A stretch of DNA of 64,000 nucleotides from an uncultured virus (IMG/VR IMGVR_UViG_3300028840_007129) (IMGVR_UViG_3300028840_007129), one strand, 5' to 3'. Shown: positions 8,684 through 52,418, counted from the first letter of the stretch. Program-made: numbers and translations. The notes: generated by a model from the sequence alone, not told the origin.

Positions 8684-10291
8684 TTAGACCTCTGCATACT
8701 CAGCAAAAGGTCTGCGAACCGGGAGAGGTGTGTCCATAATCTCATAGAGCAGGTCGAGTTTGCTGTTCTTGGTCAGAAGAGGCAGCAAACCAGGAAGACC
8801 ATAGTAATCCTTCCCATCCGGCTGATAGGTATCAAACGCAATTTGGCTCTGTCTCAGTCTCATAGAAAGATTTCTGGACTCAGAGCTCGGGATGTACAGA
8901 ATCACCACATTGGGTGTAATTCCCATCTCCTTTTCATAGCGCTTGAAGACATCAGAGAAGAGAGGGCCCTCATTCTCACCCTCATCCGTAATGATGATGA
9001 TCTGCTCCACCCGGATCTTGTCCCTGAGCAACTTCTCAAGGGCACACCCGACGGAGGTCCAGCCGTGAGCCCGGATCCGTGAGAAAGCCGCTTCCCAGTC
9101 AGAAAGATCCTTCCCCTTTGCCCTGACCTCCATGGCCATGTTATCAAAAGCCATGACATAGAGGTCCGACTCCGTTACTCCTGAGACCATGGCTGCCAGA
9201 CGAGTACCTACCTCGATGGCACTGCTCATTGACGAGCTCTTATCGACGAAGATAGCTGTAGGAATCTTGATGACTCCGCGCTTCTTGATTTGCTTATCAG
9301 CTACTTCATCGAGCTTCTTGGCCAGGGTCTCATCCTTGACCTGGGCCTTAGCGGCCTTAGACTTCAGAGCCGTGACCTTGGAGCTCTTAGCGGCCCTAGT
9401 GAGCTTCTTATCAATGAGAGCAGAGATATCCTGGTTCTCCCTGGCACCACGAGCCTCAAGAGATGCCATGTTCGTGATAAGCTCCTGGGAGCTCATGGCA
9501 TTGATGAGCGCTACCATAACCGAGGGGGTCATCTGCTTGATGAGTCCCACGGCAATACGATAGGGTACCTTGTTCTGGACAATGAGCTTAGCCGCATCCT
9601 CAGGGGACTTGGCCTCGATAATCTTCTTGTAGATACCGAGTTTGCTGTCCTCTGGGTACTTCCTCTCGAAGAGCACTTCATTGTGCCTCTCGGGGGGCCT
9701 GCGATGAATGCTGGCATAGAGCCCCTTCAGGGCACGGGCATTGCTCATGACCCTTGAGTCGAATCGATCGTTATCCTCCTCAAGCCACTTCAAGTACTGA
9801 GTAATCTCAGTCTTGAGAGCAGAGGGGATGTTTCGGTCCATACCGACATGGATAAGCTCAATCTTGTGCTTATCGATAATCTTACGGCCCTTCTTGATCT
9901 TCTCGCCGGTCTTGATCCGCTGCTTTACCTTCTTACCCTTGAGGAACCCCTTAATCTTGTCCTTCATGAACAGAGGGCTCTGACGGAACAGTGCGAGGCC
10001 AGTCTCCCGGTTCTCGATAAACGGGTCGTTCAGGAGCATGGCCGTGAACACTTCCTTATGGTCACGGATGTCACCCTTCTTGAAGTACCAACTGGCCAGC
10101 TTTGGATAGAAAGCCGGATCATTGGTCCTCAATACCTCATGAATCTCCTTGACCTTATTCGTGTCTCTGTGGGGGCAGGACATGAATGAGTTGAGGAGCT
10201 GCAGCCGGGTATCCTGTTCCTGACTGGGAGCAGTTGCGGCTGCGGAGGTCTGACTGGTGGTCCTGGTACGGGTGGTCCGAGTCCTGTTCAT
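8684..10291 (-). CDS. Ro60/TROVE-like helical protein with C-terminal vWA domain
   Basis: vWA MIDAS FVDKSSSM, GWTS, IIITDEGEN; helical N-terminus with DPAFYPKLASW; adjacent Y-RNA-like array. Confidence 0.75.
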   Translation of the reverse strand: MNRTRTTRTRTTSQTSAAATAPSQEQDTRLQLLNSFMSCPHRDTNKVKEIHEVLRTNDPAFYPKLASWYFKKGDIRDHKEVFTAMLLNDPFIENRETGLALFRQSPLFMKDKIKGFLKGKKVKQRIKTGEKIKKGRKIIDKHKIELIHVGMDRNIPSALKTEITQYLKWLEEDNDRFDSRVMSNARALKGLYASIHRRPPERHNEVLFERKYPEDSKLGIYKKIIEAKSPEDAAKLIVQNKVPYRIAVGLIKQMTPSVMVALINAMSSQELITNMASLEARGARENQDISALIDKKLTRAAKSSKVTALKSKAAKAQVKDETLAKKLDEVADKQIKKRGVIKIPTAIFVDKSSSMSSAIEVGTRLAAMVSGVTESDLYVMAFDNMAMEVRAKGKDLSDWEAAFSRIRAHGWTSVGCALEKLLRDKIRVEQIIIITDEGENEGPLFSDVFKRYEKEMGITPNVVILYIPSSESRNLSMRLRQSQIAFDTYQPDGKDYYGLPGLLPLLTKNSKLDLLYEIMDTPLPVRRPFAEYAEV

Positions 10292-10878: not shown

Positions 10879-11011
10879 GAGATTGTGCTAGTCGCGGATG
10901 CAGAGTTTGGTACACGAAGATGGGTTTGAACCATCGACTGTCAGGTTAAGAGCCTGATGCCCTACCACTGGGCGATTCGCATGTATGCATCTACAGTTGG
11001 GGCACAATCTC
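10879..11011 (-). ncRNA. Y-RNA-like unit 2 enclosing a full tRNA-Lys
   Basis: Terminal stem GAGAUUGUGC/GCACAAUCUC, inner GAUGCA/UGCAUC, motifs CCAAC, UACAU and GACUA. Confidence 0.75.
10908..10982 (-). tRNA. tRNA-Lys(CUU)-like with encoded CCA
   Basis: Cloverleaf: AUGCGAA/UUCGUGU, D arm GCCC-AGUGGUA-GGGC, anticodon arm UCAGG-CUCUUAA-CCUGA, T arm GAUGG-UUCAAAC-CCAUC, ACCA. Confidence 0.8.
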
Positions 11012-11038
11012 CTTTATTTTGTTTCAGTTACTTATATA

Positions 11039-11205
11039 AGAAAAGGTCACTCTAGTCATCATGCTGTTTTTTACTGAGCTATCCCCCCGCTGGATGCTCT
11101 TTAAAGCACCGAGCGGGGGGATGACGATTTGAACGTCAGACCATCAGTTCCGATAACTGAAGCTCTATCCATGTAAGCATGCGTAGTTAGGGAGTGGCCC
11201 TTTCT
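11039..11205 (-). ncRNA. Y-RNA-like unit 3 enclosing a circularly permuted tRNA-like domain (11073-11170)
   Basis: Terminal and inner stems, UACAU and GACUA; order is 3' D half, anticodon arm, T arm, hairpin-closed acceptor stem, 5' D half. Confidence 0.75.
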
Positions 11206-11220
11206 TGTTCTCTTTTTTAG

Positions 11221-11359
11221 AATGAGGCTGCATTAGTCGATAATGCAGGTTTGGTCGCTAAAGAGGGATTTGAACCCTCGACATTCAACTAGTAAGGTTG
11301 ATGCCCTACCACTGGGCTACTTAGCATGTATGCATCACCCGTTGGGATGCAGCCTCATT
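11221..11359 (-). ncRNA. Y-RNA-like unit 4 enclosing a full tRNA-Val
   Basis: Perfect 13-bp terminal stem AAUGAGGCUGCAU/AUGCAGCCUCAUU; motifs CCAAC, UACAU and GACUA. Confidence 0.75.
11252..11326 (-). tRNA. tRNA-Val(UAC)-like with encoded CCA
   Basis: Cloverleaf: UGCUAAG/UUUAGCG, same D arm as unit 2, UCAAC-CUUACUA-GUUGA, GAGGG-UUCAAAU-CCCUC, ACCA. Confidence 0.8.
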
Positions 11360-20813: not shown

Positions 20814-21843
20814 ACCCTATTATAGCGGGATAGTGTCTGGAATTAAATACTATGTTCCGGCAGATGAGCTCTTTCTCGTTAAAAACACACATATGGCCGG
20901 GTATCGTCGTAGCCATCGCCGGTAGAGCCTTTGACCTCTGCGATCTTCTTGACTACTTCCTTCGCCTTGGCAACGTTCTCCCACGTCTTATCGCTCTTCT
21001 GCTCGACAGGCGCTCGTTCGAAATCGGCTATCGGAATGTTGTAATCTTTCGCGATGCGAATGAGCATATTTCGAGCGCTCGTCAACAAAGCAATCGAGTT
21101 ATTCATGACGTTCTCGGGACCATTAACGCCAGTTGGACCTCTAGCGCCAATTGTACGCCGAAATAGTTGAAGAACTTCAAATTCGATTTGTTGAATTTTC
21201 GGAAATACTGTATCTAGTTCGTCGAACACTACGACTTTCTCTGCCATTGTACGTTCTCCTGTTCTTCACGAAATAGTTCAACTAGTCCACAACTTCTGCA
21301 CGTTCGAGATCCACAATATTTCTGTTGAGCGTTCTGAAACACGTTTGACTCGTAAGTCCAGGAAACACGTTTGACTCGTAAGTCCAGGGACCATGCCAAT
21401 TCAATCGACATCGAAGTGGAAGAGGCTTGCGGCATGTGTTCTCTTCTTGGGACTCTTCTCAAATTCAGCGATTATTATACTGTCTCATGTGTTTTTGATG
21501 GGTTCTAGGACACGCATAAGGAAAGAACTCCACCAATTTTCGGCATATGCTTTAGCTTCTTCAATTGTATCGAATTCTTTTGATAGGATATATCCTTTTA
21601 TCTCAGTATCTCCTAAAATATTAAGTTTGCTGCCATGTAAGCGAGTGTAACAGATAAAGACTAAAAGGCCATTTTTGGCGACAAAGCCTACCTCAGCCTC
21701 TTTCCATTCTAGTGGTTTAATCTTGAAATGACGGTTAGTTATTGCCCTCGAAGTCTTTTTCATAGGGGCCCCTTTAGTACATGATAGTTAGATGGGGCCC
21801 TAAATTAAACATGATGATTCATCCCCGCACAAATAAGAATTAT

Positions 21844-22251: not shown

Positions 22252-22290
22252 AATAGCTCCTATTCACCATTGGTTATATAGGAATACTTT

Positions 22291-22962
22291 CGCTTCATTC
22301 CCAACGTGGGAATACTCGTGGATGCTCAAGTCCAATGTTTGCAGACACGGTTCATCCCCGTGACTTCGACAGCACGCCCGACACGCGGTTAGGTTCATCC
22401 CCGCGCACGGGGAATACGCCGCACGGGAGGGAAAACTGGCCGCACTGGACCGGTTCATCCCCGCGCACGCGGGGAATACGATACGCTCACCGCCGTCCTG
22501 CGTCGTGTACCACGGTTCATCCCCGCGCACGCGGGGAATACTGGACCGGGGGCTGGTTCAGCATCTCTTTGACCGGTTCATCCCCGCGCACGCGGGGAAT
22601 ACTGAGTCGGTCGAGGGTAGTTCTGCACGCTTCACGGTTCATCCCCGCGTGCGCGGGGAATACTGGCCACAGGCCGGGCATCGGTATGGATAGATCGGTT
22701 CATCCCCGCGCACGCGGGGAATACTGATGTGTATTGCAATATTTCTCTAATGCGTCCGGTTCATCCCCGCGCACGCGGGGAATACGAAATTCCCGAACTG
22801 CTTGAAAAATGAATGATATGGTTCATCCCCGCGCACGCGGGGAATACGGTGTGTGGATCCGACGTCAACGATCGGTTCATCCCCGCGCACGCGGGGAATA
22901 CGTATCATCCAACCGCAACGTGATCCGCTGTGACGGTTCATCCCCGCGCACGCGGGGAATAC
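22291..22962 (-). CRISPR. CRISPR array 1, type I-E repeat GTATTCCCCGCGTGCGCGGGGATGAACCG
   Basis: Ten near-consensus repeats (starts 22391, 22451, 22513, 22574, 22635, 22696, 22757, 22819, 22873, 22934) plus two degenerate ones (22291, 22348); spacers mostly 32-33 nt, one of 25 nt. Confidence 0.98.
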
Positions 22963-23039
22963 TCCAATATATTGAAACAAATAGGCCCCTGTTATACAAC
23001 ATGTGGTAGAAAATGTCAAAGAGCAAAATCGGTAGAACT
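22963..23039 (-). promoter_or_regulatory. CRISPR leader 1 with promoter
   Basis: Near-identical to 31340-31416; TTGACA(23019-23014)-N17-TATAAC. Confidence 0.85.
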
Positions 23040-23059
23040 CTAAAGCTCCTATGGAACTA

Positions 23060-23414: not shown

Positions 23415-26231
23415 CTATGGTATGATTCTATCCCTGGGTATTTCCGCTTTGAACGATACCGAAAATTCTGGTAGTGCCGCTACTTTGTTTAATTTACTGA
23501 GAGCTTTCCATGTTCCCTTATCAAAAGCATATTGAGAGTTCCTGTAAGTTAGAATATATGATTTTCCATGGGGTTTGAGAGACCTCCCCCCATAACATAC
23601 GGCCTCTATTCCGGAACCATCATGCTTAGTTATTCTTGCAAAAAAATTTGATATGAAAGTCATACCCCTTATACTAAGCGGATCATTTTCAGAAGCGACT
23701 ACTGTTACCCACCGCCCTTTAAGGTCCTCTTGATATTTTGACAGTTCAATATACTTTGGTTTAGATATCTTTATTGAGGAAAGATCAGTCAATTCTTTTT
23801 CTATAGCCACCTTATCAACTGCGTCTTTTACTACTTCATTTTCTTTGCTTAATTCACCCCTTGCTATAATATTTTTTAATTCATTCTCTATTTCCTTGAA
23901 TGTGAAATAATCTATTCCTTCTTTTGTTCCAAATATCCTGAAATCTCCCCTGATATATTTCTCGAATACTAGGTCGAATTTTTCTCTAAATTCGTCAAAA
24001 TTGAAATTAGATAGGTCATAAAAACCACTCTCAGATAATGAATCAAAGATGTTTTTTCTCTCATTTCCTAGAAATTGCCTGATGAGCTTATAGTATGAGA
24101 ATTGAGCAAAGTTGCTGAAATATGTTCTATTTATTCTTTTACCGCTACCCCCTATTTCAATACCCCCCTTTATCTTATCGTAGAAATTAGAACCTATTTC
24201 TCTTAGCTCCTTGATGATAATATCCTGATCAGTTATGCCACGCAGTTCTATCTGAGCCGCATATCTTAGAATTTCAGCTTTCAGAGCTGCATAATTTGCA
24301 TCCCCTATGATATTATAAAGGGGCTTGTACTCAGGACGAGCGTGTGACCCTATAATGGGTAATGCAATCGGGATAAAGAGGTCATCCATCATGAGAGATA
24401 CAAGTATGGCATTTACTCGGTCAGAGCATTTTATTCTCAACCCCTTAGTTTCAGACCTGGGAAGATAGCAATGGATATTTATCTCTGTTTTACCTTTATA
24501 TTTTCTTAAAACGCGACCTATCAGCTGACTCATCACTCGTATAGAATTTACTGTTTTTAAAATATGAAGGACGCTGGCCCATGGCCAATCTGTTCCCTCA
24601 TTCATCATGTCCACTGCTATAACTATATCATAAAAATCATCATTTTTCTTATTGAACAGGTCTTTTTTATTGTATTTCTGGTTTTTCCTATCAACGAGGT
24701 CGCAGACCTCTCCAAGGGCACCTATTCTGCTCCTAATGACCTTATAAACCCTATCACCATCAGTTCTTAGTCCTGTATTTGATGGCGGAAATACTATGAT
24801 CTGTTTTCGACCCCTGTACTTTTTTACTTGCTGAGGTATTAATTTTTTAGCATGGTTAACGTTAAAGAATATATAGTCAAAAAAGACCTTCTTTATACCA
24901 AGACTCCTGAAGTGCTCGTGAAAAGGTACATCAAACCTCTCGAAAAGATCATGGTATGTTTTATAATCTACTAGGGGAAGCCAGTCAGTCCTGTATGGCG
25001 TGGCTGTAAATAGATGGACACCAAAACTTTTATCTTTAAATCTTATAGCTTCATCTATGTATCTTCCTATATTAGTCGGCCTTGAGTTATTTTTTTCATC
25101 TTCAACTCCTTGATGGTGGCACTCATCTACATAAATATGAAGATTTTTGCAAATTTTCCGTCTCTCTTCTTTTGAACACCGTTTCCATACTTCTACAAAT
25201 CCAGCATGAGTCGCAGTCGCAGTATTGTGGACTCTCGGTCTACTTAAAAGCCACTTTTTAAGTTCTTCTGCCACATTTCGGCAATCTCTGTCACTAAATC
25301 TTGTTGCCGGTGACCAATTGAGGACCTTACCCTTTAATCGAAATTTAGCGGGTTCGGCATAGAAATAAGTAAGGTGCCCTTGGGGTGCTATGATCAATGA
25401 CTTTTGAGTTTTTTTACGGGAGAGGGTTAGGGCTATTATTAAGACACTCTTGCCCCATCCAGGCGGTGCTACGGTTATAGTATAATTCCTATTAACTGAC
25501 CCATCTAGTATTTCCTTCTGTTTCTTAGTAAGTACAAACTCACCCCTCCTTAAATATGTTGGTTCAAGGAGGTCCCTGTATTTCTCCTTAAAAGTATATT
25601 CGAATGAGGGGGCTGCATCGCTCTCTTCACCTTTTTTCTGAAGAAGGAGCATGCACATTTTAGATCTCTTTTTATATGATTTATATGGGTGGGTTCCAAC
25701 CTCAATAACCTCATTATCTAGGTCCTCAAATGACGCATATTGCTTAGCGAGAGTTTTTATTATTTCCTCTCTTTTCTTTTCTCTTCGATATCTTATGTTC
25801 AAAATGCCATTGATGCAGATAAGAGTTCCCGGAGGAGCCTCCATAATGACAGGTCTTACGGATCGGCCGAGCTCATCGTTATCGACACTGTTTAGGGAAT
25901 CGTAATAAATTATTGCAGGAGGGTATTCATCGACATGTTCACGGAAGGTCGTTCTAAACTCACCCCTGAACCAAGTGGCACTAGAATGAAGCTTTTTATT
26001 AAACTCAATGTTTCGTGGATCCCGATCTACTCCAACAAATTGCTTCTTTTTTATGTATCCCTTGATACACAACTGGTTTATTTCTGAACTCTCCGAATTA
26101 GACTGTTCCCCACATAGAGTCCAGTAATATTGACCCTTTGGAATAAACCTGTTTCCGGTTATTCTGGAATACTCATTGAAAAGCCATTCTCTGGCTTCTA
26201 TCTTCTCTCGGGTCTCGTAACGAGAGCTCAT
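23415..26231 (-). CDS. CRISPR-associated fusion: N-terminal SAM-methyltransferase-like fold plus SF2 (Res/YeeB-like) helicase; no HD nuclease seen
   Basis: Helicase motifs APPGWGKS, VDECHH, TATP, MMNEGTDWP, QLIGRVLR; N-terminal YWTLCG, FVGVDRD, WFRGEF, IIYYDS, PGTLICIN; ATGA overlap with the cas6 stop. Confidence 0.8.
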   Translation of the reverse strand: MSSRYETREKIEAREWLFNEYSRITGNRFIPKGQYYWTLCGEQSNSESSEINQLCIKGYIKKKQFVGVDRDPRNIEFNKKLHSSATWFRGEFRTTFREHVDEYPPAIIYYDSLNSVDNDELGRSVRPVIMEAPPGTLICINGILNIRYRREKKREEIIKTLAKQYASFEDLDNEVIEVGTHPYKSYKKRSKMCMLLLQKKGEESDAAPSFEYTFKEKYRDLLEPTYLRRGEFVLTKKQKEILDGSVNRNYTITVAPPGWGKSVLIIALTLSRKKTQKSLIIAPQGHLTYFYAEPAKFRLKGKVLNWSPATRFSDRDCRNVAEELKKWLLSRPRVHNTATATHAGFVEVWKRCSKEERRKICKNLHIYVDECHHQGVEDEKNNSRPTNIGRYIDEAIRFKDKSFGVHLFTATPYRTDWLPLVDYKTYHDLFERFDVPFHEHFRSLGIKKVFFDYIFFNVNHAKKLIPQQVKKYRGRKQIIVFPPSNTGLRTDGDRVYKVIRSRIGALGEVCDLVDRKNQKYNKKDLFNKKNDDFYDIVIAVDMMNEGTDWPWASVLHILKTVNSIRVMSQLIGRVLRKYKGKTEINIHCYLPRSETKGLRIKCSDRVNAILVSLMMDDLFIPIALPIIGSHARPEYKPLYNIIGDANYAALKAEILRYAAQIELRGITDQDIIIKELREIGSNFYDKIKGGIEIGGSGKRINRTYFSNFAQFSYYKLIRQFLGNERKNIFDSLSESGFYDLSNFNFDEFREKFDLVFEKYIRGDFRIFGTKEGIDYFTFKEIENELKNIIARGELSKENEVVKDAVDKVAIEKELTDLSSIKISKPKYIELSKYQEDLKGRWVTVVASENDPLSIRGMTFISNFFARITKHDGSGIEAVCYGGRSLKPHGKSYILTYRNSQYAFDKGTWKALSKLNKVAALPEFSVSFKAEIPRDRIIP

Positions 26232-26848
26232 AGAGGAGTTATAAGAAGAAGACCGCAACCATAACGTCTTTGACTACCTATACCTCTGAAGATTGAGTTC
26301 AGAAATTGTTCCGCATCAGTTACTATCAGAGTTCCAGTAACTGATACAGTCGTGTATTTGATATCGTCATTATTCTTCTTGTGGTAAAAGGATATATTAT
26401 TGTACTGACCCGTCTGCATTTCAATAACTTCAAATCCGTGTAAGTTCTTTTTTGACTCGAACCATTGCTTTATAGCCTGATAAACCATGACACGCGGGGG
26501 CATCTGTTCTTTAGGAATGCCCTGTTCTCGTAGCCTATTCACGTACTGGGTTACCACATACTCCCTACCTTTTCTGTTCTTTTTCTTATCAGTAGGGTTG
26601 AGGCATATCTGAAAAGAGAAATATCGCCCTTTCGCTATTGCTGGCTGGTATGGTTTGGTTTTTATGAACCATGTCTTACTCTTGAAAATGGGTATGTTCT
26701 CAGATACGACGTATGTGTATGGCGATTCGTAAGCATAGACATACTTAGAATCAGGTATAATCATGCATAATTGGTTTTTGAACCAACCGGGACCGTGGTT
26801 TATTGATAAGTTCCTTTCTTCTTGGAATGTCATCTCACTGAAAAACAT
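26228..26848 (-). CDS. cas6: Cas6e (Cse3) crRNA endoribonuclease
   Basis: FQICLNPT and C-terminal Gly loop GIGSQRRYGCGLL. Confidence 0.9.
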   Translation of the reverse strand: MFFSEMTFQEERNLSINHGPGWFKNQLCMIIPDSKYVYAYESPYTYVVSENIPIFKSKTWFIKTKPYQPAIAKGRYFSFQICLNPTDKKKNRKGREYVVTQYVNRLREQGIPKEQMPPRVMVYQAIKQWFESKKNLHGFEVIEMQTGQYNNISFYHKKNNDDIKYTTVSVTGTLIVTDAEQFLNSIFRGIGSQRRYGCGLLLITPL

Positions 26849-27590
26849 ATACGCCCTCTTTCTCTAGTCTCGGACTGAACATCCTGTGCCCGATAACTAT
26901 ATCATACCGAATATGCTCACGTTTGCAGGTAAAACTGTTATCGGAGCCCTCCCAGAATACGGGCACTTTTCCTTTAACCGGATCATCAGTAATGGGTGAA
27001 TATCCTGAATATGCACGGTTAAGGTTCCGAGCCTCAATGATTTGAGGTTGGGGGGCGCTCTGAAGACAACACTTACGTCCGAGAAAGGGTTGAAATATAG
27101 GATAAAGAATGTGCTCCATCAGGTATTCAAGCTTCACCTTTTTGGATAGGCTCCAAATACAGGCCGTAAAAGAAGCCCCACAGAGATACTCCCTCTCTCC
27201 AATGATGGTATTAGACCTGCTCAGGTCTGTGTGTTTCTCGAATAAGTGATTGAGAGCCAGACGATCTTCCGGCCGCACGTTGAGGGCGGCATGGAAGTAT
27301 CTATTAGGCAATCCATTATCCTGGATATACTTGGAAGTATCCCGATGGAGTAACCCAACCGACTGAAAATCTACAATCTTTGTGCCGGGTCTATTTACAC
27401 GACATGAGAACCCTATAAGGCTGCAGAGTCCCTTAAGATGCTCAGCCTCGGTTAGGCCCAGACAAGCTCCCAGATACCCCACCACTCCGCTTTTGGTTGG
27501 CCTGGACTCCACAGCACGGTTATCGTTTGCTAGGGGGGACCCCCATGCTTGGAAAAGCCCCTCTAGTCCGAATAGGAGGTATTGGCCCAT
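26835..27590 (-). CDS. cas5: Cas5e (CasD)
   Basis: LLFGLEGLFQAWG...RPTKSGVVGYLGACLG, REYL and FLGRKCC motifs. Confidence 0.92.
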   Translation of the reverse strand: MGQYLLFGLEGLFQAWGSPLANDNRAVESRPTKSGVVGYLGACLGLTEAEHLKGLCSLIGFSCRVNRPGTKIVDFQSVGLLHRDTSKYIQDNGLPNRYFHAALNVRPEDRLALNHLFEKHTDLSRSNTIIGEREYLCGASFTACIWSLSKKVKLEYLMEHILYPIFQPFLGRKCCLQSAPQPQIIEARNLNRAYSGYSPITDDPVKGKVPVFWEGSDNSFTCKREHIRYDIVIGHRMFSPRLEKEGVYVFQ

Positions 27591-27592
27591 AA

Positions 27593-28921
27593 TTACCTCC
27601 TGGCCCGAGCTCTTTTCGTAGTGGGACGGCCCCTGCCTCTTTTGACGACCTTTGAACTTTTTGGGGGCCGACCCCTTTTTGCGGGCACGGATGAACGAAT
27701 TTTTTTGACCGGAATGAGGGCCTCCTTGAAAGCCCTGTCTTCTTCATCCTCACCAATTTTTCGGCCCTTGAAGGCTTTTTTGATGTGCTCTGAGATGAAA
27801 GCGTTCACGTTTCCGATATTATGTTTGCTGTCATCCAGTTCGCTCTCTTCGATGAAGAGTTCCATGGTATCGACGTCCATCAACTTTTTCCGTTTAATCT
27901 GCTCGATACGGCCTCGGAGTTTTCTGACCGCTCGATCAAACATCGGAGTTTCACCCTGAATGGGCAATTCTTGAACGAAGACGTTGCTGTAGTCCTCATA
28001 ATGCCCCTCACCCCTGGTGAAAAGGACATAATCGGCAAAACTGAGGCCATTGGCGATGGTGGTGCTATGTCCTGAGGGGGAGCATTCAATCATGCCCTTG
28101 ATTAGGTTGCAAACATCCTGGATGTTCTCATCAAGAGAGCGGTCATTGTTCCTGGCTAAAACACCCAGGTCGATGATAACACTGTAGGCGTAAAGAGCAC
28201 CATCTCTGAGCCATATATCTCCAAGGTGACCGGCACCCTTGGAATCACTGAGCTGATCGATCGCCGTGAAGAAATCCTTCCTGATACGTGTTTGATGAAC
28301 CGTTATGGCATGACCGAAGCGGCATGCCGCTTCAACTCTGTACTTCAGGTATGGGGGGCTGGCGTGCCTACCAAACAGTGATATATCGCTGGTAACATTG
28401 CGCCGATAAAGGTTAAAGAGCTCAGTTTTTTCTTCTTTGATTATCCAGTCGGATACGTCTTCTCCATTGGCCAGCTTTTCGATAAGTTGATTTACGGCAT
28501 TGAATTCACATGGTTGAATTTTCAAGACCTCAGTCTTGAATTTATCATCATTATTGCCATTCTTACCATTTTTGTTGTTTTTTGCTACTTTTTTCTTTTC
28601 ATCACTTTTCTTAGCGAAGGACTCTTTTATTTTTATGGCAAGAGCTTCAGCTTTTTCTTTCTTCATGCCCTTCTCGATGAGTTTCTCATAGGCATAAGCA
28701 CCAATATGCCCCGTCTGTACAGAGATGACCCCGCTATCAGCAAGAGCATCCCTGATAATGCTCCTTTTCCGGGACTGTGAGGAATCTCTGCCTCTCTCCG
28801 ATCCCAGGCAATTGGCCCCCTTCGGAAGACCATCACGGTCACGATTCACGTTAGAGGGACCCCTCTTAAAAAGTACCGTGGCCGTGATGAAAAAGCTTTT
28901 TGTCCGGTTGTAGAGACTCAT
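27593..28921 (-). CDS. cas7: Cas7e (Cse4) with basic AT-hook C-terminal tail
   Basis: PSNVNRDRDGLPK, SSQSRKR, LFGR, HAITVH, DFFTAID and GAGHLG motifs. Confidence 0.92.
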   Translation of the reverse strand: MSLYNRTKSFFITATVLFKRGPSNVNRDRDGLPKGANCLGSERGRDSSQSRKRSIIRDALADSGVISVQTGHIGAYAYEKLIEKGMKKEKAEALAIKIKESFAKKSDEKKKVAKNNKNGKNGNNDDKFKTEVLKIQPCEFNAVNQLIEKLANGEDVSDWIIKEEKTELFNLYRRNVTSDISLFGRHASPPYLKYRVEAACRFGHAITVHQTRIRKDFFTAIDQLSDSKGAGHLGDIWLRDGALYAYSVIIDLGVLARNNDRSLDENIQDVCNLIKGMIECSPSGHSTTIANGLSFADYVLFTRGEGHYEDYSNVFVQELPIQGETPMFDRAVRKLRGRIEQIKRKKLMDVDTMELFIEESELDDSKHNIGNVNAFISEHIKKAFKGRKIGEDEEDRAFKEALIPVKKIRSSVPAKRGRPPKSSKVVKRGRGRPTTKRARARR

Positions 28922-30747
28922 CCTGTTCCTCCTATGATGATATTATAGAACTTCTTGTACTCAATAAATGCTGATACAACCTGGAAAAGATCAACGGATT
29001 CGAGATCCTTAATGATCTGGATTAAGTTATCGCCACTTATGGGTTTAAGGAGATGTGCGTTAGGAGAGGATGAGACTTGATCTATAAAGGGCACTTCGTT
29101 TGATAGGCCATTTATGGAGGCTATACCCTTCGCTATGAGAGTTGCTCTATTTCTGTCGACCTTCAAAGACTCAATGAGTTCATCCACAATAGCACTATCG
29201 CAGTCAGAGCCAGTCGACCTGAGAATGTTCCTGAGTGAAAAATCTTTTTGAATCTCCAGGAACCAGTTTTGAATCAGCGTCCTTTGTTCTTTAGAAAACT
29301 TTACCAAATCAGCTGGAAATAGCTTATCCTTGTCAATAGGCTTTAGACCAAACTCCTCTTCTATTTCTTTCAGGGTCTCGACCATACGGCCTTTTTCCCC
29401 ATAACTTAGGGGCTTGATCTTATTAAGGCTCTGAAAAACTATGCGGTTATAGAAAACAGAGGGACTATTATAGTTCTCGAAGAATAAATTCTCCGTATCA
29501 TCGTAGAAAGATTTTAAGGCCGTTAATCTTGAGGTGAACCGCCTCTCGTATAGAAAAGAATAATAATCGCTGAATCTTTGTGCGACCTCAATAGACTTTA
29601 GGAAATTGTCTCTTTCAGAGGCTCCAGGAATCGGAAGTATCCTTGTAAGATACTCGATGAACTGAGCTTGTCTGTAAATTGGAGCGTCTATCTTTATCTC
29701 GAAAGGCCCGTCATATCTAGAAAGGTATGATGCTATTACTGGTGCTGGTGACCTTTTCTGAAGTTTATCCTTTTTATTTTTCCTTGGTTTAATCCACTCA
29801 GAAATGTACCGACCCAAAGAAACGTAAGAAGTTGTATATACGGGCCAATTCTTAGTTGTACTTATTCGGCCTGGGGCATAATAACTTAAGATTTTATCGT
29901 TGATTTTATAGGGGCATAATGGGTGTGGGGTTTTAAACTTACGGACCTTATAATTAATTCTGATAAAGTTACTTACAGTGATTGACACCTGTTGCCCGCA
30001 TATATCACAAATTCCCTGTTCAGAATCTTCATTAGAGTCTTCAATAAGATAAATTGTTCTACAACGCTCGAAATAATGAGACAGGGCATGATTGCGATTA
30101 AATTTCTTATCCCAAAAGAATGGATTTCCGGTCCATTCCCCAGTAAATTCCGATTTGAGAATAACGTTGCTCCATAAACTTTCCCAAAGAGTCCGGCCCC
30201 GTACTGTTGTAATTGTGGTCCCCAACGCAGTCATGCAAGATGACGGGTAATGTCCTGGGCCGCCCATGGGGCCCCTCGCTTGAAGCATATAAACACTAAT
30301 AAAGGCACATTCAAGGCATATTTTTCTGTATTTATCTTCAGATATAAAAAAGTCACGATTATCTTTTATACGTTCTTTCCTTGGTGTTTCTGGTATAAGC
30401 TCACCGATTTTTTTCTCATAACCACTTTTTGTGGGCTTGTTTCCCTGTAATGGCCTGGGGTCGTTACTGAGGAGGTCAAAGTATTTAGACGGAAATATTT
30501 TTTTCAGAGTTCTAGAAGAAGGAGGCGTCCTGAGGAATTTTTTATGAGCCTCTTTTGACCCTGGGGGCATTCCAAATTGAAGGGACGCAATAACGAACTG
30601 TTCGAAGGAGCTGTTGAAGTCCGGCCTGGAGAAGCCAAACTCTATAACGGGGTTGGTCCTATAATTTGAGGTGATCTCAGAAAGGGGGATCCTTTCAACC
30701 AGGCCATTTTTACGGATTACTGGAATCGGGTCGATAAAAGGATTCAT
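28918..30747 (-). CDS. cas8e: Cas8e (Cse1), probably fused to a C-terminal Cas11 (Cse2)-like domain
   Basis: RPDF, NRDFF, CLECA, GGPG and LWESLWSNV motifs; last ~130 aa (NWFLEIQKDFSLRNILR) resemble Cse2, and no separate cse2 gene exists. Confidence 0.85.
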   Translation of the reverse strand: MNPFIDPIPVIRKNGLVERIPLSEITSNYRTNPVIEFGFSRPDFNSSFEQFVIASLQFGMPPGSKEAHKKFLRTPPSSRTLKKIFPSKYFDLLSNDPRPLQGNKPTKSGYEKKIGELIPETPRKERIKDNRDFFISEDKYRKICLECAFISVYMLQARGPMGGPGHYPSSCMTALGTTITTVRGRTLWESLWSNVILKSEFTGEWTGNPFFWDKKFNRNHALSHYFERCRTIYLIEDSNEDSEQGICDICGQQVSITVSNFIRINYKVRKFKTPHPLCPYKINDKILSYYAPGRISTTKNWPVYTTSYVSLGRYISEWIKPRKNKKDKLQKRSPAPVIASYLSRYDGPFEIKIDAPIYRQAQFIEYLTRILPIPGASERDNFLKSIEVAQRFSDYYSFLYERRFTSRLTALKSFYDDTENLFFENYNSPSVFYNRIVFQSLNKIKPLSYGEKGRMVETLKEIEEEFGLKPIDKDKLFPADLVKFSKEQRTLIQNWFLEIQKDFSLRNILRSTGSDCDSAIVDELIESLKVDRNRATLIAKGIASINGLSNEVPFIDQVSSSPNAHLLKPISGDNLIQIIKDLESVDLFQVVSAFIEYKKFYNIIIGGTG

Positions 30748-30824
30748 TCTAGCTCCGCTTTTTTGTGGTGCGGATTTTTAATTTTTGTTATTAAAATATT
30801 TTGAGCACTGTCACCTTTATCTAA

Positions 30825-30853
30825 ATTATAATAAAAAAAGAACCAAAAGTCAA
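30825..30853 (-). promoter_or_regulatory. sigma70 promoter of the cas operon
   Basis: TTGACT(30853-30848)-N17-TATAAT(30830-30825). Confidence 0.85.
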
Positions 30854-30872
30854 TATCTTTTTTGTAAAACAG

Positions 30873-30933
30873 TCCCCTCTAGGGATTACGCATTTTCAGC
30901 ACAGTCACTGGTTCAACCCCAAACGGGGACTGC
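30873..30933 (-). ncRNA. CreR/CreA-like regulatory mini-crRNA targeting the cas promoter
   Basis: Short spacer between degenerate repeats; 30892-30908 matches 30798-30814 at 15/17, mismatches at positions 6 and 12, 5'-AAG PAM. Confidence 0.8.
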
Positions 30934-31339
30934 ATGACATAAACATGCTACTGTTGTGAGTGCATCATCCTCAGTAAGAGGAATACAGTTTCCGAAGTCA
31001 AGCCTGTTCGTATCGTTCGATTCATCCCTAAAGGGGAATATCTGGAAGTCTTAATCTCAACATCGCAGGGTTTGGTTCGTCCCAGCACGGGGAATATGTA
31101 TCATCAAACCGCAACGTGATGCGCTGCATCGGTTCATCCCCTCGCACGCGGGGAATACAATGGTAACAAGATGCTTTTAGGGGCAGCCAATGGTTCATCC
31201 CCGCGCACGTGGGGAATATACATCGACGAATGGCTATGCCGTGCTGCTAATCGGTTCATCCCCGCGTGCGGGGAATACTCAGTCCCAGGTGCCTGGATGT
31301 CAACCTCGTACGGTTCATCCCCGCGTGTGCGGGGAATAC
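30909..31339 (-). CRISPR. CRISPR array 2, same repeat family
   Basis: Four near-consensus repeats (31130, 31191, 31252, 31311) and four shortened degenerate ones (30909, 30961, 31018, 31073). Confidence 0.95.
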
Positions 31340-31416
31340 TCCAATATTTTGAAACCAATAAGTGCCTTTTATACAGCATGTGGTAGAAAATGTCAAAGAG
31401 CAAAATCGGTAGAACT
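31340..31416 (-). promoter_or_regulatory. CRISPR leader 2 with promoter
   Basis: Homologous to leader 1; TTGACA(31396-31391)-N17-TATAAA. Confidence 0.85.
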
Positions 31417-37124: not shown

Positions 37125-38342
37125 TCAGCTTGTGCCGTAATTCTCCATCGGAAGATTAAGGCACGGCGGTGTGACCGCTGGCGCTTTCACCTCCACCACT
37201 CTATAGAGGTGGCAGAAGTAGGAGTAAGCCTTCGCCGTGAGAGCGATCTTGAAACCTCTTCCTTCAAGGTTCAGCTTCTTGTTCTCTCCCGGTTCCAACT
37301 TAACCTTGATCTGTTCGCATATCCCCAAGCCCTTACGAGCTATCACTAACGCCGCTGCTGTGTGACGGTTCAATGAATACTGTTTCTGATACTTCAGCAT
37401 CCCGGTGATAGACGTGAAAGCCGGGTTGATTTTCTTGACTTCAACACGATTCTTCATGGCCCTACGTTCGATAGCCTGAAGTAACTGAGAGTAGATGAAA
37501 TTGTGGCGCATCCGGTTGAACTTCTTCGGGCCGTGTTTTCCATCATTGAACTTCAGGTCTTCCAGAACGACCCCCTTGCCCTTTAGGACAGCGAGATCAA
37601 CGACCTGTTTGGCCAGTTCCTCTGTGTCATTCTTCCTTTTGTCCCTGCTGGCAAACTGTAGCCTGTCAGCATGAAGATAGTGATGACCCAACAGGTTCCC
37701 GTCCCTCCCCGTCTCCACTACCGTCAATCCGTCAGGGTTGGTATCGATCCCTATAGTTCCATTGGAGAACCTGAACACTGGTTTCTCATCCGGGATCGTC
37801 AGGCCAATGTAAACGTAGAACTTTCCATCCTTGGCCTTGATCCTCACATCGTAACATTGGCGGTACAGCTCAAACTCATGTTGGAACTTCTCCGGAATAT
37901 AGAGCTTGAAAAACAGGAACTCTCGATGACCGGGAAGACCCACACGGAGCCTATAACCTTCCGGGGTGTTGATGACCCTGATGTTGGGGTTGCCTTGTTT
38001 GGTCACGTCTCCACGGGAGTAGAGTTCTCCGTCACGGGCCTGATGCCACTGATCCTTGGTGACGAGATGGCTGAGCATCTTGTTCCAGAGACGTTTGCCG
38101 CCAAACAGGGCATGTTCCTTCTCCACGCTCTTGGCTCTCAGCACAGCATCCTGGATGTACCGCTGGTTCAGCTTGGCCATGTACAGTGGCTTGCAGGCTT
38201 TCACTACGTCATTGGCCTTGGTCAGCGCATCTATGTGGATGCGCTGATAGGCGTAACGGCGACAGGAGGACTGGCTCCTCATGATCTGTTTGAGGGCGTC
38301 GAAGTCCCCCTGATGGATGGTTCCTGTTATTACTTTTTGCAC
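37125..38342 (-). CDS. tnpB: TnpB-related RuvC protein, atypical
   Basis: IGIDTN, VVLEDL, INPAFTS; RuvC-III region reads NRHTAAA; no CxxC finger. Confidence 0.85.
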   Translation of the reverse strand: MQKVITGTIHQGDFDALKQIMRSQSSCRRYAYQRIHIDALTKANDVVKACKPLYMAKLNQRYIQDAVLRAKSVEKEHALFGGKRLWNKMLSHLVTKDQWHQARDGELYSRGDVTKQGNPNIRVINTPEGYRLRVGLPGHREFLFFKLYIPEKFQHEFELYRQCYDVRIKAKDGKFYVYIGLTIPDEKPVFRFSNGTIGIDTNPDGLTVVETGRDGNLLGHHYLHADRLQFASRDKRKNDTEELAKQVVDLAVLKGKGVVLEDLKFNDGKHGPKKFNRMRHNFIYSQLLQAIERRAMKNRVEVKKINPAFTSITGMLKYQKQYSLNRHTAAALVIARKGLGICEQIKVKLEPGENKKLNLEGRGFKIALTAKAYSYFCHLYRVVEVKAPAVTPPCLNLPMENYGTS

Positions 38343-38914
38343 CGACCGCCCCTCTTACCGTAGATACGTGCCGAGTACGAGGTCATAATGGCTATGATGT
38401 CCTCGGTGATTTCCTCTTCATACCGTTGTTCATCACGGTGGTTGATTATCTCTAATTCGACGTTGAAGGCATCGCATAACTTTTTGATGTACGTGAATCC
38501 GAACCTTGCAAGTCGGTCTTTCCATTCGATAACGACCCGGCACACCTGACCGGCGATGACCATATCAAGGAGTTTGTTGAGTTGTCTGCGGTTTTCATTG
38601 ACCCCGCTGGCTATCTCTTCCAGTACCACGAAGTCGTATTTTTTATCGTGGGCGTGTTCCATGAGCCGGAGCTTCTGCCGGTTCAGATTCTCCCGCTGCT
38701 TTTCGGTAGAGCCCCGGCAGTACAGGACGGTCTTCTTTCCGGAACTGTCTTTGGTCTTCTCCTGACCGATCAGTTTATACAACTCGTCCTCGTCATATCG
38801 ACGGTGTTTGCCGGGGGTGCGGGAAGGCTTTATCAGGCCTTCCCGTTCCCATTCCCGGAGCGTCCCTATGGATATGCCGAGTTTTTCAGACGCGGCTTTA
38901 ATCGACAACGGCAT
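38330..38914 (-). CDS. tnpA: IS607 serine recombinase transposase
   Basis: MerR-like HTH (TLREWEREG, RTPGKHRRY), YCRGSTEKQ, EIASG and DRLARFGF motifs. Confidence 0.92.
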   Translation of the reverse strand: MPLSIKAASEKLGISIGTLREWEREGLIKPSRTPGKHRRYDEDELYKLIGQEKTKDSSGKKTVLYCRGSTEKQRENLNRQKLRLMEHAHDKKYDFVVLEEIASGVNENRRQLNKLLDMVIAGQVCRVVIEWKDRLARFGFTYIKKLCDAFNVELEIINHRDEQRYEEEITEDIIAIMTSYSARIYGKRGGRCKK

Positions 38915-42629: not shown

Positions 42630-43226
42630 TTAGTAAGTCCCAATCGAGGTGATTTCTTCTATAGAGAGGTCTTTTCCCAGGAGCATTGGCAGATAAGTGA
42701 CAAGGTCCTTTGTATTTTCCTCAATCAGGCCCCTATCTTTATTTTTATAGGTTTTAAAAGGCCGCTTTATTATGCTGAAGGTCTGGAAGTCTTCATTATC
42801 ACAGTGAACATAAAAATCTACAGAAGTTGAACCGCCCATATAAGGAGACATGGCACTAAATGACCTATGTCCGAATATCCATGGAATGAACTCGCCCTTT
42901 CCATGATTTCCTCTTATTATGGAAATAATACCTACATAACGTGGACGTGGTTTCCCAAAATACTGGCAACATTCAAATCTGCTTTTGCATAAAAAAATTC
43001 CATGCTCTTTATGATAGTGGACCTTTGCTCCAAAGTGATATCTGCAGTCAGTAAGAAAACTGATATGGTAGCTTTGACCTTCAACGCCCCTAAATTTGGA
43101 AAGGACTATTTCTGAGGGTAGTTTTCTTGGTTGTTGAGGGACTACGGGAGTCTCCTCATTAAGTTTATCCAGAGACTCCTCACCACCTATAAGAAGTTGA
43201 TAACGACTCATGACTTCACGACTCAT
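42630..43226 (-). CDS. Hypothetical protein, possibly gp32-like ssDNA-binding
   Basis: HY..C..CC cluster followed by beta-rich RY...W.FG...DF; weak resemblance only. Confidence 0.3.
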   Translation of the reverse strand: MSREVMSRYQLLIGGEESLDKLNEETPVVPQQPRKLPSEIVLSKFRGVEGQSYHISFLTDCRYHFGAKVHYHKEHGIFLCKSRFECCQYFGKPRPRYVGIISIIRGNHGKGEFIPWIFGHRSFSAMSPYMGGSTSVDFYVHCDNEDFQTFSIIKRPFKTYKNKDRGLIEENTKDLVTYLPMLLGKDLSIEEITSIGTY

Positions 43227-45991
43227 GACTTCTCTGCAATAGTCTTTGCCAGATAGGTGAAAGCAATGATAATAAGAGCCACCGCCTTAAGGGTCTCGAT
43301 AATATAAATGCCAAGGGTCACATTTTCGATATTAGTCATGGTTACTCCTCAACTTGAGTCTTTAAATGTTCGGGGAGGAAGTTCTTGAAATTCTTTATGT
43401 CGGATACCTCGTTGAGATCCTTAACAGGGACGGAGTACACTTCCCGTTCCCTCACATCTCCCTTCCTGGTAAAAACATCATACTCGTCTTCATTAAATGC
43501 TACCCCAGCTGCCGTGAACATACCGTTATCAATAAGCACCACGGGTACAGCGCCTTTTTTCGAGAATTCCTCGAAAGTAGGTATACAACCAGTCCATACG
43601 TCTGTAGGACCGGAAATCATCTCAAATTGACCCAGAAAGTGCTCTTTAGTCATGTTCCGGGGATTAATGTAGCAGCCCATATAGATACTCCTTATTTAAA
43701 GGCATGCACCTATAATGATAGTCTAGAAGTAAGCAGTTATAAAGAAAGGGGTTAAGTTTTTTGACCCCGCGTTACGGGGCCAATTTCAAAGACTTCGAGG
43801 TGTGGGGCTACTGGGATTGGGTTCCATTACGGATACCGAGGGTAATATTCAAGGCCTTGGTGGGTTTCCTCATGACGACTCCTGAAGAGAGTTTCTCCAG
43901 GAGACCTATCTCGACTTTATTAGCTATCTCGGCTTTTTCTTGGCCGCTCGTATCTTCTTTATAATGAAATCACCTTCTCCGGAGACGGTTCAGACGGTGT
44001 ACCGTTACAGCGAGCTCACCAGCCAAATTTTTTGTACCGAAGTCGAGCCGGGCAAGTTTTGATGTCGAAACCATCTTTGTTCTCATTATCATAGGGATCT
44101 ATTTCAAACATGTAGCACCTCGTCTTATTCCATTCGGCGAGAGTATTATCATTCACCTCATGTTGGAGGCAGAATTCATTGTCACATTGGTCCATCTTAT
44201 TTCTCTTTAGAGAAGGCTCTCAAAACTATGGATAAGTCGGGGGCGCAGCTCGTACATAAAAGGCTCTCCATGGGCTCATTGATTAGACCGATGGTAACAA
44301 AATAACAATCCCATACTAGTCCCTCACGCAACGATCTTCTACACTTGATACATCTTTTCTCATTTTTAGTGTCAGTTTTTAGAACGAGCCGAACTTTATC
44401 CGTGGGGTCCCCAGGAATTTCATACCACAAACCTATTTTAGCGCCAAAAGCTTCTTTAACAGACTTCTGAATGATAATGTTATATCCAAATAAGGATATC
44501 ACCATTATAGGCCCCCTTCCTTCCGTATAGTGTCTGCAAGCAAAATAATAGCGTTTCTAATCTTAAGGTACTTTCCTGGTTTAGAAAATGAGATTTTCAA
44601 GGGTTTCCAGCATTTTATTAATAGTCTTTTATTCATAGCATTTTGTCATCGCATCTTGGAAAGCACCATTGATTCCGAAAAGGATAAAAATGCACACCTT
44701 CTCTATCGTATTGCTAAGCATTGCAGTAGCATGTGTTCTGATCGTGACCGGGCTACTAATTTACTGGAACCGTGACCCTACCAAGAGAATCATGAACCAC
44801 AGGGGCCATAGACGGGACCCGGAGGCAGATTAATCATACTCGGTCATATCCCTATAGGTCCCCTTCATATCATCTATTAACTCCTGGGAGTCGTTCAGGA
44901 AATCTATGGTTTCCTGACGGTCTTCAGCCGACACATCCTCGTCAAACTCCATATCAGGTGCTTCATGATCAAGGCGGTCCATTAGTATCCCTCCGGAGGA
45001 ATAGGATACATCCTACAGTAATAACTCCAACCAGTGATATGGAAACTCTATCTACGAGCAATGCCACTCTCTCATACCCTGACAGTTTCAGAACGAGCCC
45101 TATAAATAGGCAGCTCATGAGAATGGATATTCCTCTTGGAAAAGGTTTACCGGAGAACCAGAACCGACAGACCTTACGCATAGAATGCCTCCAAAAACAG
45201 CTACCAGTTAATATAATTCATCTAGCACCGGTTGGGGCTATGATGTTTTCTTGTCGAGGATCCCATCCTGTTCGGGTGAGAGTCTAAGGCTGCCCAGAAT
45301 GCTCATAAGTCCTTATTACTGCGTGACTTTCATCTCCATGTGTTTCATAGCCCGAAACCTATAACACTACCCAGTTGTTTAGGTTTCTTACAGGGCTTGT
45401 AGCTCCTGTATTTAGGGGACCATTTAAACCACCACTCTCTTCTTTCTTCGGCCATTAAGAGCCCCTCAGCGACTTCCTCTATAAGGGCTATCGGATAAGA
45501 CCCCTCATACATTTCTGCCCAATTCTCAGCCACGGCCTTTTGGGCAACCTCTAATTTTGAGAACCATCCCCAGGTCCTTTGGTCTCTTATTCCGAAATAC
45601 TCCTTCTGACTTGGATAGATCCGGACATTGAACGAGTGATAGAGGCCGTCCCTAGACCTCTTGGCGTTGATGTACCGGGGGCCAATATCCATAGTTGTAA
45701 CGACATATACTTTTTTCATGACTCATCCATATTAAGAGCATTCTCAACCATCTGTTCAACAGTGTTGATGTCTCCTACTTCTAGATTAAGTTTTTGAGTG
45801 GCATCTTTTAGGTTTTTCCAACCACGATTGTTGATGATTTCCATTACCGCCGAACTGTGTGACCCCTTTCTCGAATTGAGGCCAGAAACCAATGCCTTCA
45901 AACATCCCTCAAAGATTTTCAAACCTACATCAGAATTCCCATCTACCTTGAAATGAACGATGTAATACCCTTCATGCATAACAAGACCCCC

Positions 45992-51383: not shown

Positions 51384-52418
51384 TCACTTTCGACCGAACC
51401 ATTTCGAGTAAAGTTTCTCGTAAGTTCCGTCGCGCATGATCTCCAACAGGGCCAGGTTCAGGGGCTCTCTTAAGGAGCTGTTTTGTTGAAGGGCTATGCC
51501 GTAATCCTGTTCATCGAAGACAGGCCCGGTCATAGCAATTTTACCGGAATCGTTCAAGACAGCGTACCTGAGTGCTGGCATGTCATAGACCATGGCATCT
51601 ACGCCGTCTTTTATCAATAGATCATAACAGTCCTCAAAAGTGGGCTGCGTTAAGACGTTCGAATTTAAATTGTTAAGTGCATCAATAGAGGTGGTCCCCT
51701 CCACTGTAGTAACTCTTTTTCCGGAGAGGTCCTCTTTAGAGTTTATCGATTGATAGATTTCCTGCATGGTCATCACAAGGCTCATTTTTGCAATGACATA
51801 GGGACTTATAAGGTATATCCCTATCCACATGACAACAATGGCTACGAATTTTCCCAGAGGGGTGTGGGGGGTTTTATCTCCGTACCCTACTGTGGTCATG
51901 GTAACATTGGTCCAGTACATGCCATCGGCTATCCCGTGTAAGGGCCTGTCATCAAATGAGGTACGACCTTTTTCCACACGCCATATGATGATGCCGCATA
52001 GTACAATGAATCCGAAAAATATAGCTATGGTGTCCCAAGATGATGTGAAGAAGAGATAAATGATTCTGAAGAAGCCGGTGCTGCCCTTTTTTTTCACCAT
52101 GATGCCAAGGCCTGATTTAAGATAGGGATGAGAGAAATCGATAATTTTTTCTCTCTTTTCATTGATGGTGATACCAGCTAAACCGACATCAGCGCGACCC
52201 GTTACGAGGCTATCAAAGAGACTCGGGAAATGGCCTATTTTTACATACTCATATTCAAGGTTCAGTCTATCGGCGATAGTTTCCCAGAGGTCTATATCGA
52301 ATCCGGTAGGCTTGGGGGATTCCAGGATTACGCATGGGGGAAAGTCATTAACGGCTACACGAAGGGTATTACCATAGCAGGTCAGGACTAAGACTAGGAG
52401 AATAGTTGGTGTTCTCAT
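51384..52418 (-). CDS. GluR0-like ligand-gated K+ channel (split SBP_bac_3 domain plus pore)
   Basis: Signal peptide, GFDIDL, GITINEKRE, DFSHPY, TM helix, TMTTVGYGD filter, TM helix, YGIAL...LYSKWF. Confidence 0.92.
   Translation of the reverse strand: MRTPTILLVLVLTCYGNTLRVAVNDFPPCVILESPKPTGFDIDLWETIADRLNLEYEYVKIGHFPSLFDSLVTGRADVGLAGITINEKREKIIDFSHPYLKSGLGIMVKKKGSTGFFRIIYLFFTSSWDTIAIFFGFIVLCGIIIWRVEKGRTSFDDRPLHGIADGMYWTNVTMTTVGYGDKTPHTPLGKFVAIVVMWIGIYLISPYVIAKMSLVMTMQEIYQSINSKEDLSGKRVTTVEGTTSIDALNNLNSNVLTQPTFEDCYDLLIKDGVDAMVYDMPALRYAVLNDSGKIAMTGPVFDEQDYGIALQQNSSLREPLNLALLEIMRDGTYEKLYSKWFGRK

Follow-up and report, generated by a model that had tools for sequence, protein, structure and literature searches.

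Can the decayed tail of a CRISPR array encode a guide by which the Cascade encoded next to it controls its own synthesis? The question is raised by two near-identical 17-nt words in the window (i.e. the whole stretch of 64,000 nucleotides that was analysed), one of which directly follows the last recognisable repeat of an array (array 2) and the other the predicted promoter of a type I-E Cascade operon. The explanation that we prefer, and that we consider likely in view of the sequence, is that the last unit of array 2, consisting of a pseudo-repeat, a 19-nt pseudo-spacer and a second pseudo-repeat, would act as a regulatory mini-array of the CreR type, by which Cascade is directed to its own promoter.

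The window looks like a part of a large phage or of another mobile element, for which the contig on record measures 186 kb. It contains long runs of uncharacterised ORFs on one strand, and no structural gene was seen in it. Among its other contents are genes for tRNA-Lys(CTT) and tRNA-Val(TAC) (10908-11326, minus strand), an ORF (52505-53062, minus) with an Acb2/Tad1 hairpin domain (Pfam 2.7e-14), the family of which comprises phage sponges that bind cyclic-nucleotide defence signals, and an IS607-like pair (37125-38914, minus) formed by a MerR-HTH serine recombinase (194 aa) and, behind it, a 405-aa ORF with transposase (TnpB-like) PHROG matches. An unusual cargo for a mobile element is the ORF at 51384-52418 (minus), which combines a solute-binding domain with an ion-channel pore and is glutamate-receptor-like. 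There are also perfect two-copy tandem repeats at 21336-21388, 43203-43232 and 57663-57710 (periods of 26, 15 and 24 nt, respectively) and a 114-bp tandem repeat at 55316-55551.

The reading frames of cas8e, cas7e, cas5e and cas6e are intact, and all four are matched by Pfam as well as by PADLOC (Table 1). The curated cut-off of NCBIfam is reached by Cas5e and Cas6e, the scores of Cas8e (51.9 versus 70) and Cas7e (136 versus 178) being below it. The ATG of cas8e is found at 30747, with GGAG 5 nt before it. No ORF of the operon matches cas11/Cse2 in Pfam, NCBIfam or PADLOC; Cas11 may be fused to, or internally translated from, the long Cas8e or Cas7e. Likewise, no cas1 or cas2 was recognised in the window among the ORFs that separate or adjoin the arrays. 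The position of cas3 is taken by an SF2 helicase of 947 aa that matches generic DEAD/Helicase_C models only and for which Pfam, NCBIfam, PADLOC and the PDB sequences gave neither a Cas3 nor an HD match; a recognisable HD-nuclease Cas3 was not found within the window. Searches of the protein databases gave no homologue of this helicase except itself, and its look-alikes in the Atlas are generic helicases only (scores below 0.9). The orphan helicase, together with the absence of cas11, cas1 and cas2, suggests a nuclease-free, type IV-like use of a type I-E Cascade. Since neither cas11 nor a recognisable cas3 was found, we take it as an assumption in what follows that this Cascade is active; our sole ground for treating it as functional is that the four frames are intact.

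Table 1. Features of the Cascade locus, in window coordinates
Feature	Position	Strand	Remarks
Array 2 leader promoter	31368-31396	minus	predicted, 11/12; TTGACA (31396-31391), 17 nt, TATAAA (31373-31368)
Array 2, well-preserved part	31098-31339	minus	four 27-29-nt repeats (GTATTCCCCGCACACGCGGGGATGAACCG type) and four 32-nt spacers
Array 2, decaying part	30936-31097	minus	degenerate repeats 31097-31073, 31041-31018 and 30986-30961; spacers of 31, 31 and ~25 nt
Pseudo-repeat 1	30909-30933	minus	GCAGTCCCCGTTTGGGGTTGAACCA; last recognisable array 2 repeat
Pseudo-spacer (guide)	30890-30908	minus	GTGACTGTGCTGAAAATGC, 19 nt; read from the window sequence
Pseudo-repeat 2	30870-30889	minus	GTAATCCCTAGAGGGGACTG; 5' part and 5-bp hairpin (3'-handle part) retained
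cas8e promoter	30825-30853	minus	predicted, 11/12 consensus; TTGACT (30853-30848), 17 nt, TATAAT (30830-30825)
AAG, PAM position	30815-30817	minus	immediately before the target, read on the strand identical to the guide
Target	30798-30814	minus	GTGACAGTGCTCAAAAT; 15/17 bases shared with the pseudo-spacer, differences at 6 and 12
cas8e	28918-30747	minus	609 aa; Pfam CRISPR_Cse1 3.4e-25, PADLOC Cas8e 9e-26
cas7e	27593-28921	minus	442 aa, ~85 aa longer than the family model; Pfam, PADLOC
cas5e	26835-27590	minus	251 aa; Pfam, PADLOC
cas6e	26228-26848	minus	206 aa; Pfam, PADLOC
SF2 helicase, in place of cas3	23415-26258	minus	947 aa; start overlaps the end of cas6e
Array 1 with leader promoter	22290-23019	minus	~11 spacers, decaying tail; array itself 22962-22290

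The intact repeat of the arrays is 29 nt long (GTATTCCCCGCACACGCGGGGATGAACCG and close variants) and forms a 7-bp hairpin (-14.3 kcal/mol), which is followed by ATGAACCG, eight bases that would form the 5' handle of a mature guide. The hallmark of type I-E, i.e. a palindromic 28-29-nt repeat with an 8-nt 5' handle, is present, and a variant of the handle, ATGAACCA, is seen in both arrays, in repeats that are intact in other respects; in Rfam no CRISPR-repeat family reached the threshold, two tRNAs being all that was found. Array 2 extends on the minus strand from its leader at ~31400 down to 30870. Its leader (31340-31400) is near-identical to that of array 1 (22964-23040), and array 2 gives the impression of an older copy of array 1 that is decaying. 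The stems of its three degenerate repeats are shortened, each of them still folding as a hairpin in the same register; in one of these repeats (within 30961-31097) CCUC/GAGG replaces CCCC/GGGG, both sides of the stem having changed. For the spacers of this degenerate part (30961-31097) no PAM-flanked partial targets were found in the window.

Behind the handle of pseudo-repeat 1, the minus strand at 30908-30892 reads GTGACTGTGCTGAAAAT (a direct reading of the window), and it is this word that recurs as the target, the copies lying 94 bp apart on either side of the cas8e promoter. Cascade flips out every sixth crRNA base. Over positions 1-17 pseudo-spacer and target are mismatched only at positions 6 and 12, with identity at all pairing positions (15/15). 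Positions 18 and 19 of the pseudo-spacer are mismatched too and there the likeness stops, and upstream of guide position 1 there is no similarity between the surroundings of guide and target; the match is sharply bounded and begins exactly at the handle/spacer junction. The flanks are AAG at the target and CCA (repeat) at the guide's own DNA. The target lies 51 nt upstream of the cas8e ATG. The core of these observations had been put forward in the initial annotation: its guide and target sequences are confirmed by the minus-strand reading, the confinement of the mismatches to positions 6 and 12 within 17 nt by a search of the window, and the AAG at 30817-30815 does stand immediately before the target. 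The guide-target observation is real.

Resemblance by chance was weighed by scoring matches as Cascade reads them, i.e. as a run that is anchored at position 1 and in which every sixth base is ignored. At its target the pseudo-spacer scores 15. When the 125 nt that separate the array from cas8e were simulated 20,000 times with a first-order Markov model, the maximum was 8 (0/20,000 came near the observed value), and the analytic expectation of such a match is ~1.8e-7, before AAG is required. The target is the sole site for the guide in the 64-kb window at ≤3 mismatches, a second site being absent. The remaining 18 spacers of the two arrays reach scores of 8-11 anywhere in the window, and among the 364 handle-like sites in the window a comparable run is seen only in the 114-bp tandem repeat and in the two similar tRNA genes. 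In addition, the odds that two mismatches fall at exactly positions 6 and 12 are 1/136 (1/816 when position 18 is counted), and mismatches limited to these positions are the pattern that is expected if only the pairing positions are under selection. Nothing but the AT-rich composition of the region speaks for a chance resemblance, the probability of which we put at next to nil, and a chance origin of the match is excluded by the figures given.

Two copies that flank a promoter at a distance of 94 bp could, in principle, also be the binding sites of a protein regulator or some other repeat at the DNA level, in which case their adjacency to a repeat remnant would be coincidental. A small ORF at 23404-23060 does give faint helix-turn-helix hints (E 0.17-0.19). 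Such operator sites, however, leave unexplained that the match starts at the junction, that one copy is flanked by AAG and that the mismatches fall at positions 6 and 12; moreover, the shared 17-nt word is not palindromic and no regulator gene was recognised. We consider this explanation highly improbable.

With respect to the promoters, sigma-70-type matches to 11 of the 12 consensus bases occur five times in the window, all on the minus strand (mean in shuffled sequences: 1.7), and three of the five head array 2, cas8e and array 1, the predicted leader promoter of array 1 consisting of TTGACA (from 23019), a 17-nt spacing and TATAAC. The TTGACT of the cas8e promoter starts sixteen bases beyond pseudo-repeat 2, and seven bases past the -10 box comes the AAG, with the target next to it. 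If transcription is assumed to start 7 nt after the -10 box, the predicted span of the target is ~ +5 to +21. The locus combines a mini-array-like unit with a seed-anchored partial match at the promoter of the effector cas genes. The leader promoter of array 2 is presumed to be the source of the mini-guide transcript.

The anatomy of the unit itself is asymmetric. Pseudo-repeat 1 retains a hairpin (CCCC-GTTT-GGGG, 30928-30917) and, directly behind it, the handle TTGAACCA (30916-30909), which agrees with the variant ATGAACCA at 7/8 and with the consensus at 6/8 positions, its first base being unlike that of the intact repeats; of the first five bases of the repeat only three are kept. In pseudo-repeat 2 four of the first five bases are kept and only 1/8 of the handle, and behind it follows a short U-run that a scan flagged as terminator-like. 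The pseudo-spacer is enclosed, as in a mini-array, by two repeat-like flanks with the handle part upstream and the hairpin part downstream, and the inner halves of both pseudo-repeats are better kept than the outer halves; the preserved parts would be only those that end up in one mature RNA. Compared with the usual 31-33 nt, the pseudo-spacer lacks 12-13 nt, which corresponds to two Cas7 steps of 6 nt each. Pseudo-repeat 1 forms a weak hairpin (local fold of -8.5 versus -14.3 kcal/mol for the intact repeat), and when the tail is folded as a whole, the structure of lowest energy has the 5' arm of this pseudo-repeat paired with the 3' arm of pseudo-repeat 2 over 8 bp, a pairing by which both local hairpins would be hidden.

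This weak hairpin with its competing fold, the location of the unit in the most decayed part of an array that lacks an adaptation module, and the failure to find cas11 and cas3 could all be taken to mean that the unit is a relic, i.e. a spacer that once matched its own element or was regulatory, that has ceased to be processed or loaded (or the Cascade of which is inactive), and the match of which persists merely through recency. Neutral decay, however, should scatter the differences, whereas here all 15 pairing positions are kept and only non-pairing positions differ (1/136), and this next to repeats and spacers that are heavily diverged. The better preservation of the inner halves of the pseudo-repeats and the four intact Cascade frames likewise argue against a relic, which we judge to be unlikely.

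The regulatory mini-array thus stays the preferred reading, and the further claims of the initial annotation are in line with it. Upstream of the target there is indeed a TTGACT-N17-TATAAT promoter (11/12 consensus), and the repeat remnant that was said to close a spacer of ~19 nt was recovered at 30889-30870, the spacer being exactly 19 nt long. The claim that the unit is an autorepressor is supported at the level of the sequence: the start at the junction, the mismatches at every sixth position, the AAG, the split repeat halves and the target at a promoter are all as this claim would predict.

From the observed anatomy, statistics and gene content we infer the following course of transcription, processing, assembly, binding and repression. 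The mini-array would be transcribed together with array 2 from the leader promoter, and cleavage of pseudo-repeat 1 by Cas6e, past its hairpin, would leave the handle UUGAACCA on a short guide. Cas5e, Cas7e and Cas8e would then assemble on this guide, probably with four Cas7 subunits rather than six, as the spacer falls 12-13 nt short of the usual 31-33 nt. The AAG would be read by Cas8e, and the guide would pair with the template strand at positions 1-5, 7-11 and 13-17, i.e. at ~ +5 to +21 of the cas8e promoter. There the bound complex would block RNA polymerase at the cas8e promoter as well as read-through from the array, and by way of the block at this promoter Cascade is proposed to limit its own synthesis. 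Whenever Cascade is titrated by ordinary crRNAs, or is inhibited, repression would drop and the operon would be switched up. Given that the guide is short and that no recognisable Cas3 nuclease was found, the binding would be harmless to the element's own DNA.

A more far-reaching reading can be added, which we regard as rather doubtful: the locus as a whole might be a silencing machine that was derived from type I-E and is carried by a large phage or mobile element, a machine without Cas11 and adaptation genes, with an HD-less SF2 helicase (IV-A/DinG-like), with a 19-nt guide in a four-Cas7 Cascade, and with a guide that originated on the spot from an array tail in decay. If true, it would offer a snapshot of the birth of a CreR from such a tail, and it would be the first virus-borne Cascade with its own autorepression loop.

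As for the PAM, AAG is the PAM that is named for type I-E (Liu et al., bioRxiv 10.1101/2023.03.10.532045; Shmakov et al., PMC10120712); for the Cascade described here its putative role is read from this single target site. Protospacers that could provide an independent PAM were sought in the viral contigs, from which the spacer core is absent. Of three spacer patterns that were compared with these contigs two were without a match, and the third gave one match (L118), with an AAA flank, that was rejected as a protospacer and judged to be due to chance (mismatches at 6 and 12, unmatched tail). A blastn search with both arrays against phage records returned borderline matches only, none of them usable. 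Within the window, spacer 7 of array 1 has a possible self-target at 10153 (minus strand, in the ORF 8684-10291) with an 11-nt seed and AAG; it was judged a chance match as well, since 2/26 run-11 pairs carry AAG among the 364 handle-like sites. Furthermore, a near-duplicate spacer is common to the two arrays (22902-22933 and 31098-31129, minus strand), with 5/32 positions differing.

The Cascade belongs to a remote lineage, the nearest relatives among 5.8 billion clustered proteins showing 32% (Cas8e) and 34% (Cas7) identity. A search with Cas8e alone gave no relatives in the genome-contig or viral-contig collections; an alignment-based scan recovered 41 distant I-E loci in genome contigs and none in viral contigs. 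A guide/target pattern yielded 72 single-site loci in viral contigs that were rejected as chance matches (the repeat is present in 0/72), and the intact repeat is absent from the viral contigs. Using the spacer-core pattern, two further metagenome contigs of the same element were found, in which array 2, guide and target are letter-for-letter identical. The locus is present in two DNA sequencing runs that show no difference in array 2, guide or target, and no RNA run carries it among the runs listed.

A scan of both strands of the 900 nt that precede cas8e in the 41 distant I-E loci, in search of guide-target pairs with an anchoring handle and a PAM flank, gave a hit in one locus (L101), as against 0 hits in five shuffled sets; a same-strand scan gave 4 weak pairs, all without a handle, which were rejected. 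The locus that scored, from Azohydromonas aeria, contains at 5670-5850 (minus strand) a textbook CreR-type mini-array that lies upstream of cas8e and is divergently transcribed. Its handle is ATGAACCG, its guide measures 32 nt and its distal repeat lacks a handle; the two partial targets, each flanked by AAG, lie 25 bp apart at ~130-150 bp upstream of cas8e and are likewise mismatched at 6 and 12. The build of the mini-array recurs there with an unrelated sequence. With a comparable element in only 1/41 of the distant I-E loci, the mini-array is not a general trait of this Cas8e group.

The array repeat of the Azohydromonas locus is of the same type as that of the window and has the same handle, ATGAACCG, a common I-E type by which a further explanation is brought in, namely, that the guide is used by a type I-E Cascade of the host, instead of or besides the element's own, with the result that the element's cas operon is silenced or that the host Cascade is occupied by RNAs of the element. 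In the same sequencing runs the repeat of the window also occurs on other contigs, where it is combined with different spacers, and phage mini-arrays that use a host Cascade have been published (PMC10120712; bioRxiv 10.1101/2024.10.29.618823). Several array 1 spacers (22290-22700, minus strand) are GC-rich as compared to the element (~44% GC), and these spacers, together with the shared repeat in the same runs, suggest a GC-rich host or competitor that shares the repeat type. What stands against host usage is that the target is the element's own cas8e promoter, directly behind which follow the element's own genes for Cas6e, Cas5e, Cas7e and Cas8e. We hold it to be quite unlikely, and return to the mini-array as a device of the element's own Cascade.

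As regards known systems, the mechanism itself is already published and has been experimentally shown for types I-E and I-F1. In the case of the I-E CreR of S. enterica, 15 matching nt with an AAG flank bring about an 8.6-fold repression of the casA promoter (Liu et al., bioRxiv 10.1101/2023.03.10.532045). The unit of the window resembles this CreR in being a degenerate two-repeat mini-CRISPR within a cas locus, with a target at the promoter of the first Cascade gene and proposed autorepression, in its AAG-flanked match of ~15 nt at the putative PAM-proximal end, and in the asymmetry of its repeats, the first pseudo-repeat having the 5' handle and the second the part for the 3' handle (Liu et al.). 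It differs in that it forms the end of a longer array that is in decay, whereas the S. enterica CreR is a stand-alone gene; its spacer has only 19 nt; its match comprises 15/17 bases with gaps at 6 and 12 instead of 15 consecutive bases; its target lies at the predicted transcription start, 51 nt from the ATG, instead of ~140 bp upstream; and its operon is very divergent and without cas11, cas1, cas2 and a recognisable cas3.

The I-F1 mini-array of P. aeruginosa YL84, the spacer of which is shorter and is mismatched at 6 and 12, represses its promoter (Shmakov et al., PMC10120712). With this and the other I-E and I-F1 mini-arrays of that study the window shares the short spacer, the mismatches at 6 and 12, a putative cognate PAM, the target at a cas8 promoter and the degraded distal repeat; YL84 differs in type (I-F1) and PAM (CC), and the I-E cases are stand-alone mini-arrays between cas3 and cas8e on bacterial chromosomes (PMC10120712). 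Mini-arrays are found in ~19% of bacterial I-E loci, and their origin from the terminal unit of an array was proposed in the same study (PMC10120712). The E. coli Cascade is described to assemble on shortened spacers with fewer Cas7 subunits, interference requiring >20 nt, and Cas11 to be dispensable for silencing in that species.

Three other systems are related in a wider sense. CreA of the Haloarcula hispanica I-B CreTA module is also a crRNA-like RNA of partial complementarity that uses Cascade as a transcriptional repressor; unlike the guide proposed here, it chiefly represses a toxin RNA gene. The Cracr arrays of phages encode crRNA-like guides on a mobile element, the I-E types with 24-nt pseudo-spacers and an 8-nt handle (bioRxiv 10.1101/2024.10.29.618823); Cracr RNAs, however, use the Cas proteins of the host against a host cas promoter, whereas the target in the window is the promoter of the element's own Cascade. 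The tracr-L of S. pyogenes (II-A) shares the short duplex of guide and promoter (11 bp) and the autorepression of an effector, yet it is a class 2 system that works with Cas9 and an RNA of other origin. A narrow search of the literature on phage-encoded CRISPR systems with crRNA-like guides or cas promoters returned, in the parts of the texts that were covered, no virus-borne Cascade that represses its own promoter.

What is unusual here is that the unit has remained part of a longer array, as its tail, that its guide measures 19 nt, and that it belongs to an orphan Cascade lineage with a non-Cas3 helicase and no cas11, cas1 or cas2 on a probable mobile carrier. As judged from its sequence, the locus would be a clean and statistically unambiguous example of crRNA-like autorepression, in which the mismatch pattern, with drift at the flipped-out positions only, resembles a footprint of the Cascade backbone, and in which the guide-target pair is a ready-made test of the activity and the PAM of an orphan Cascade. 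Being still joined to its parent array, the regulatory unit supports the published origin of mini-arrays from terminal units, and it would extend the CreR principle to a very divergent, adaptation-less variant of type I-E on a probable mobile element.
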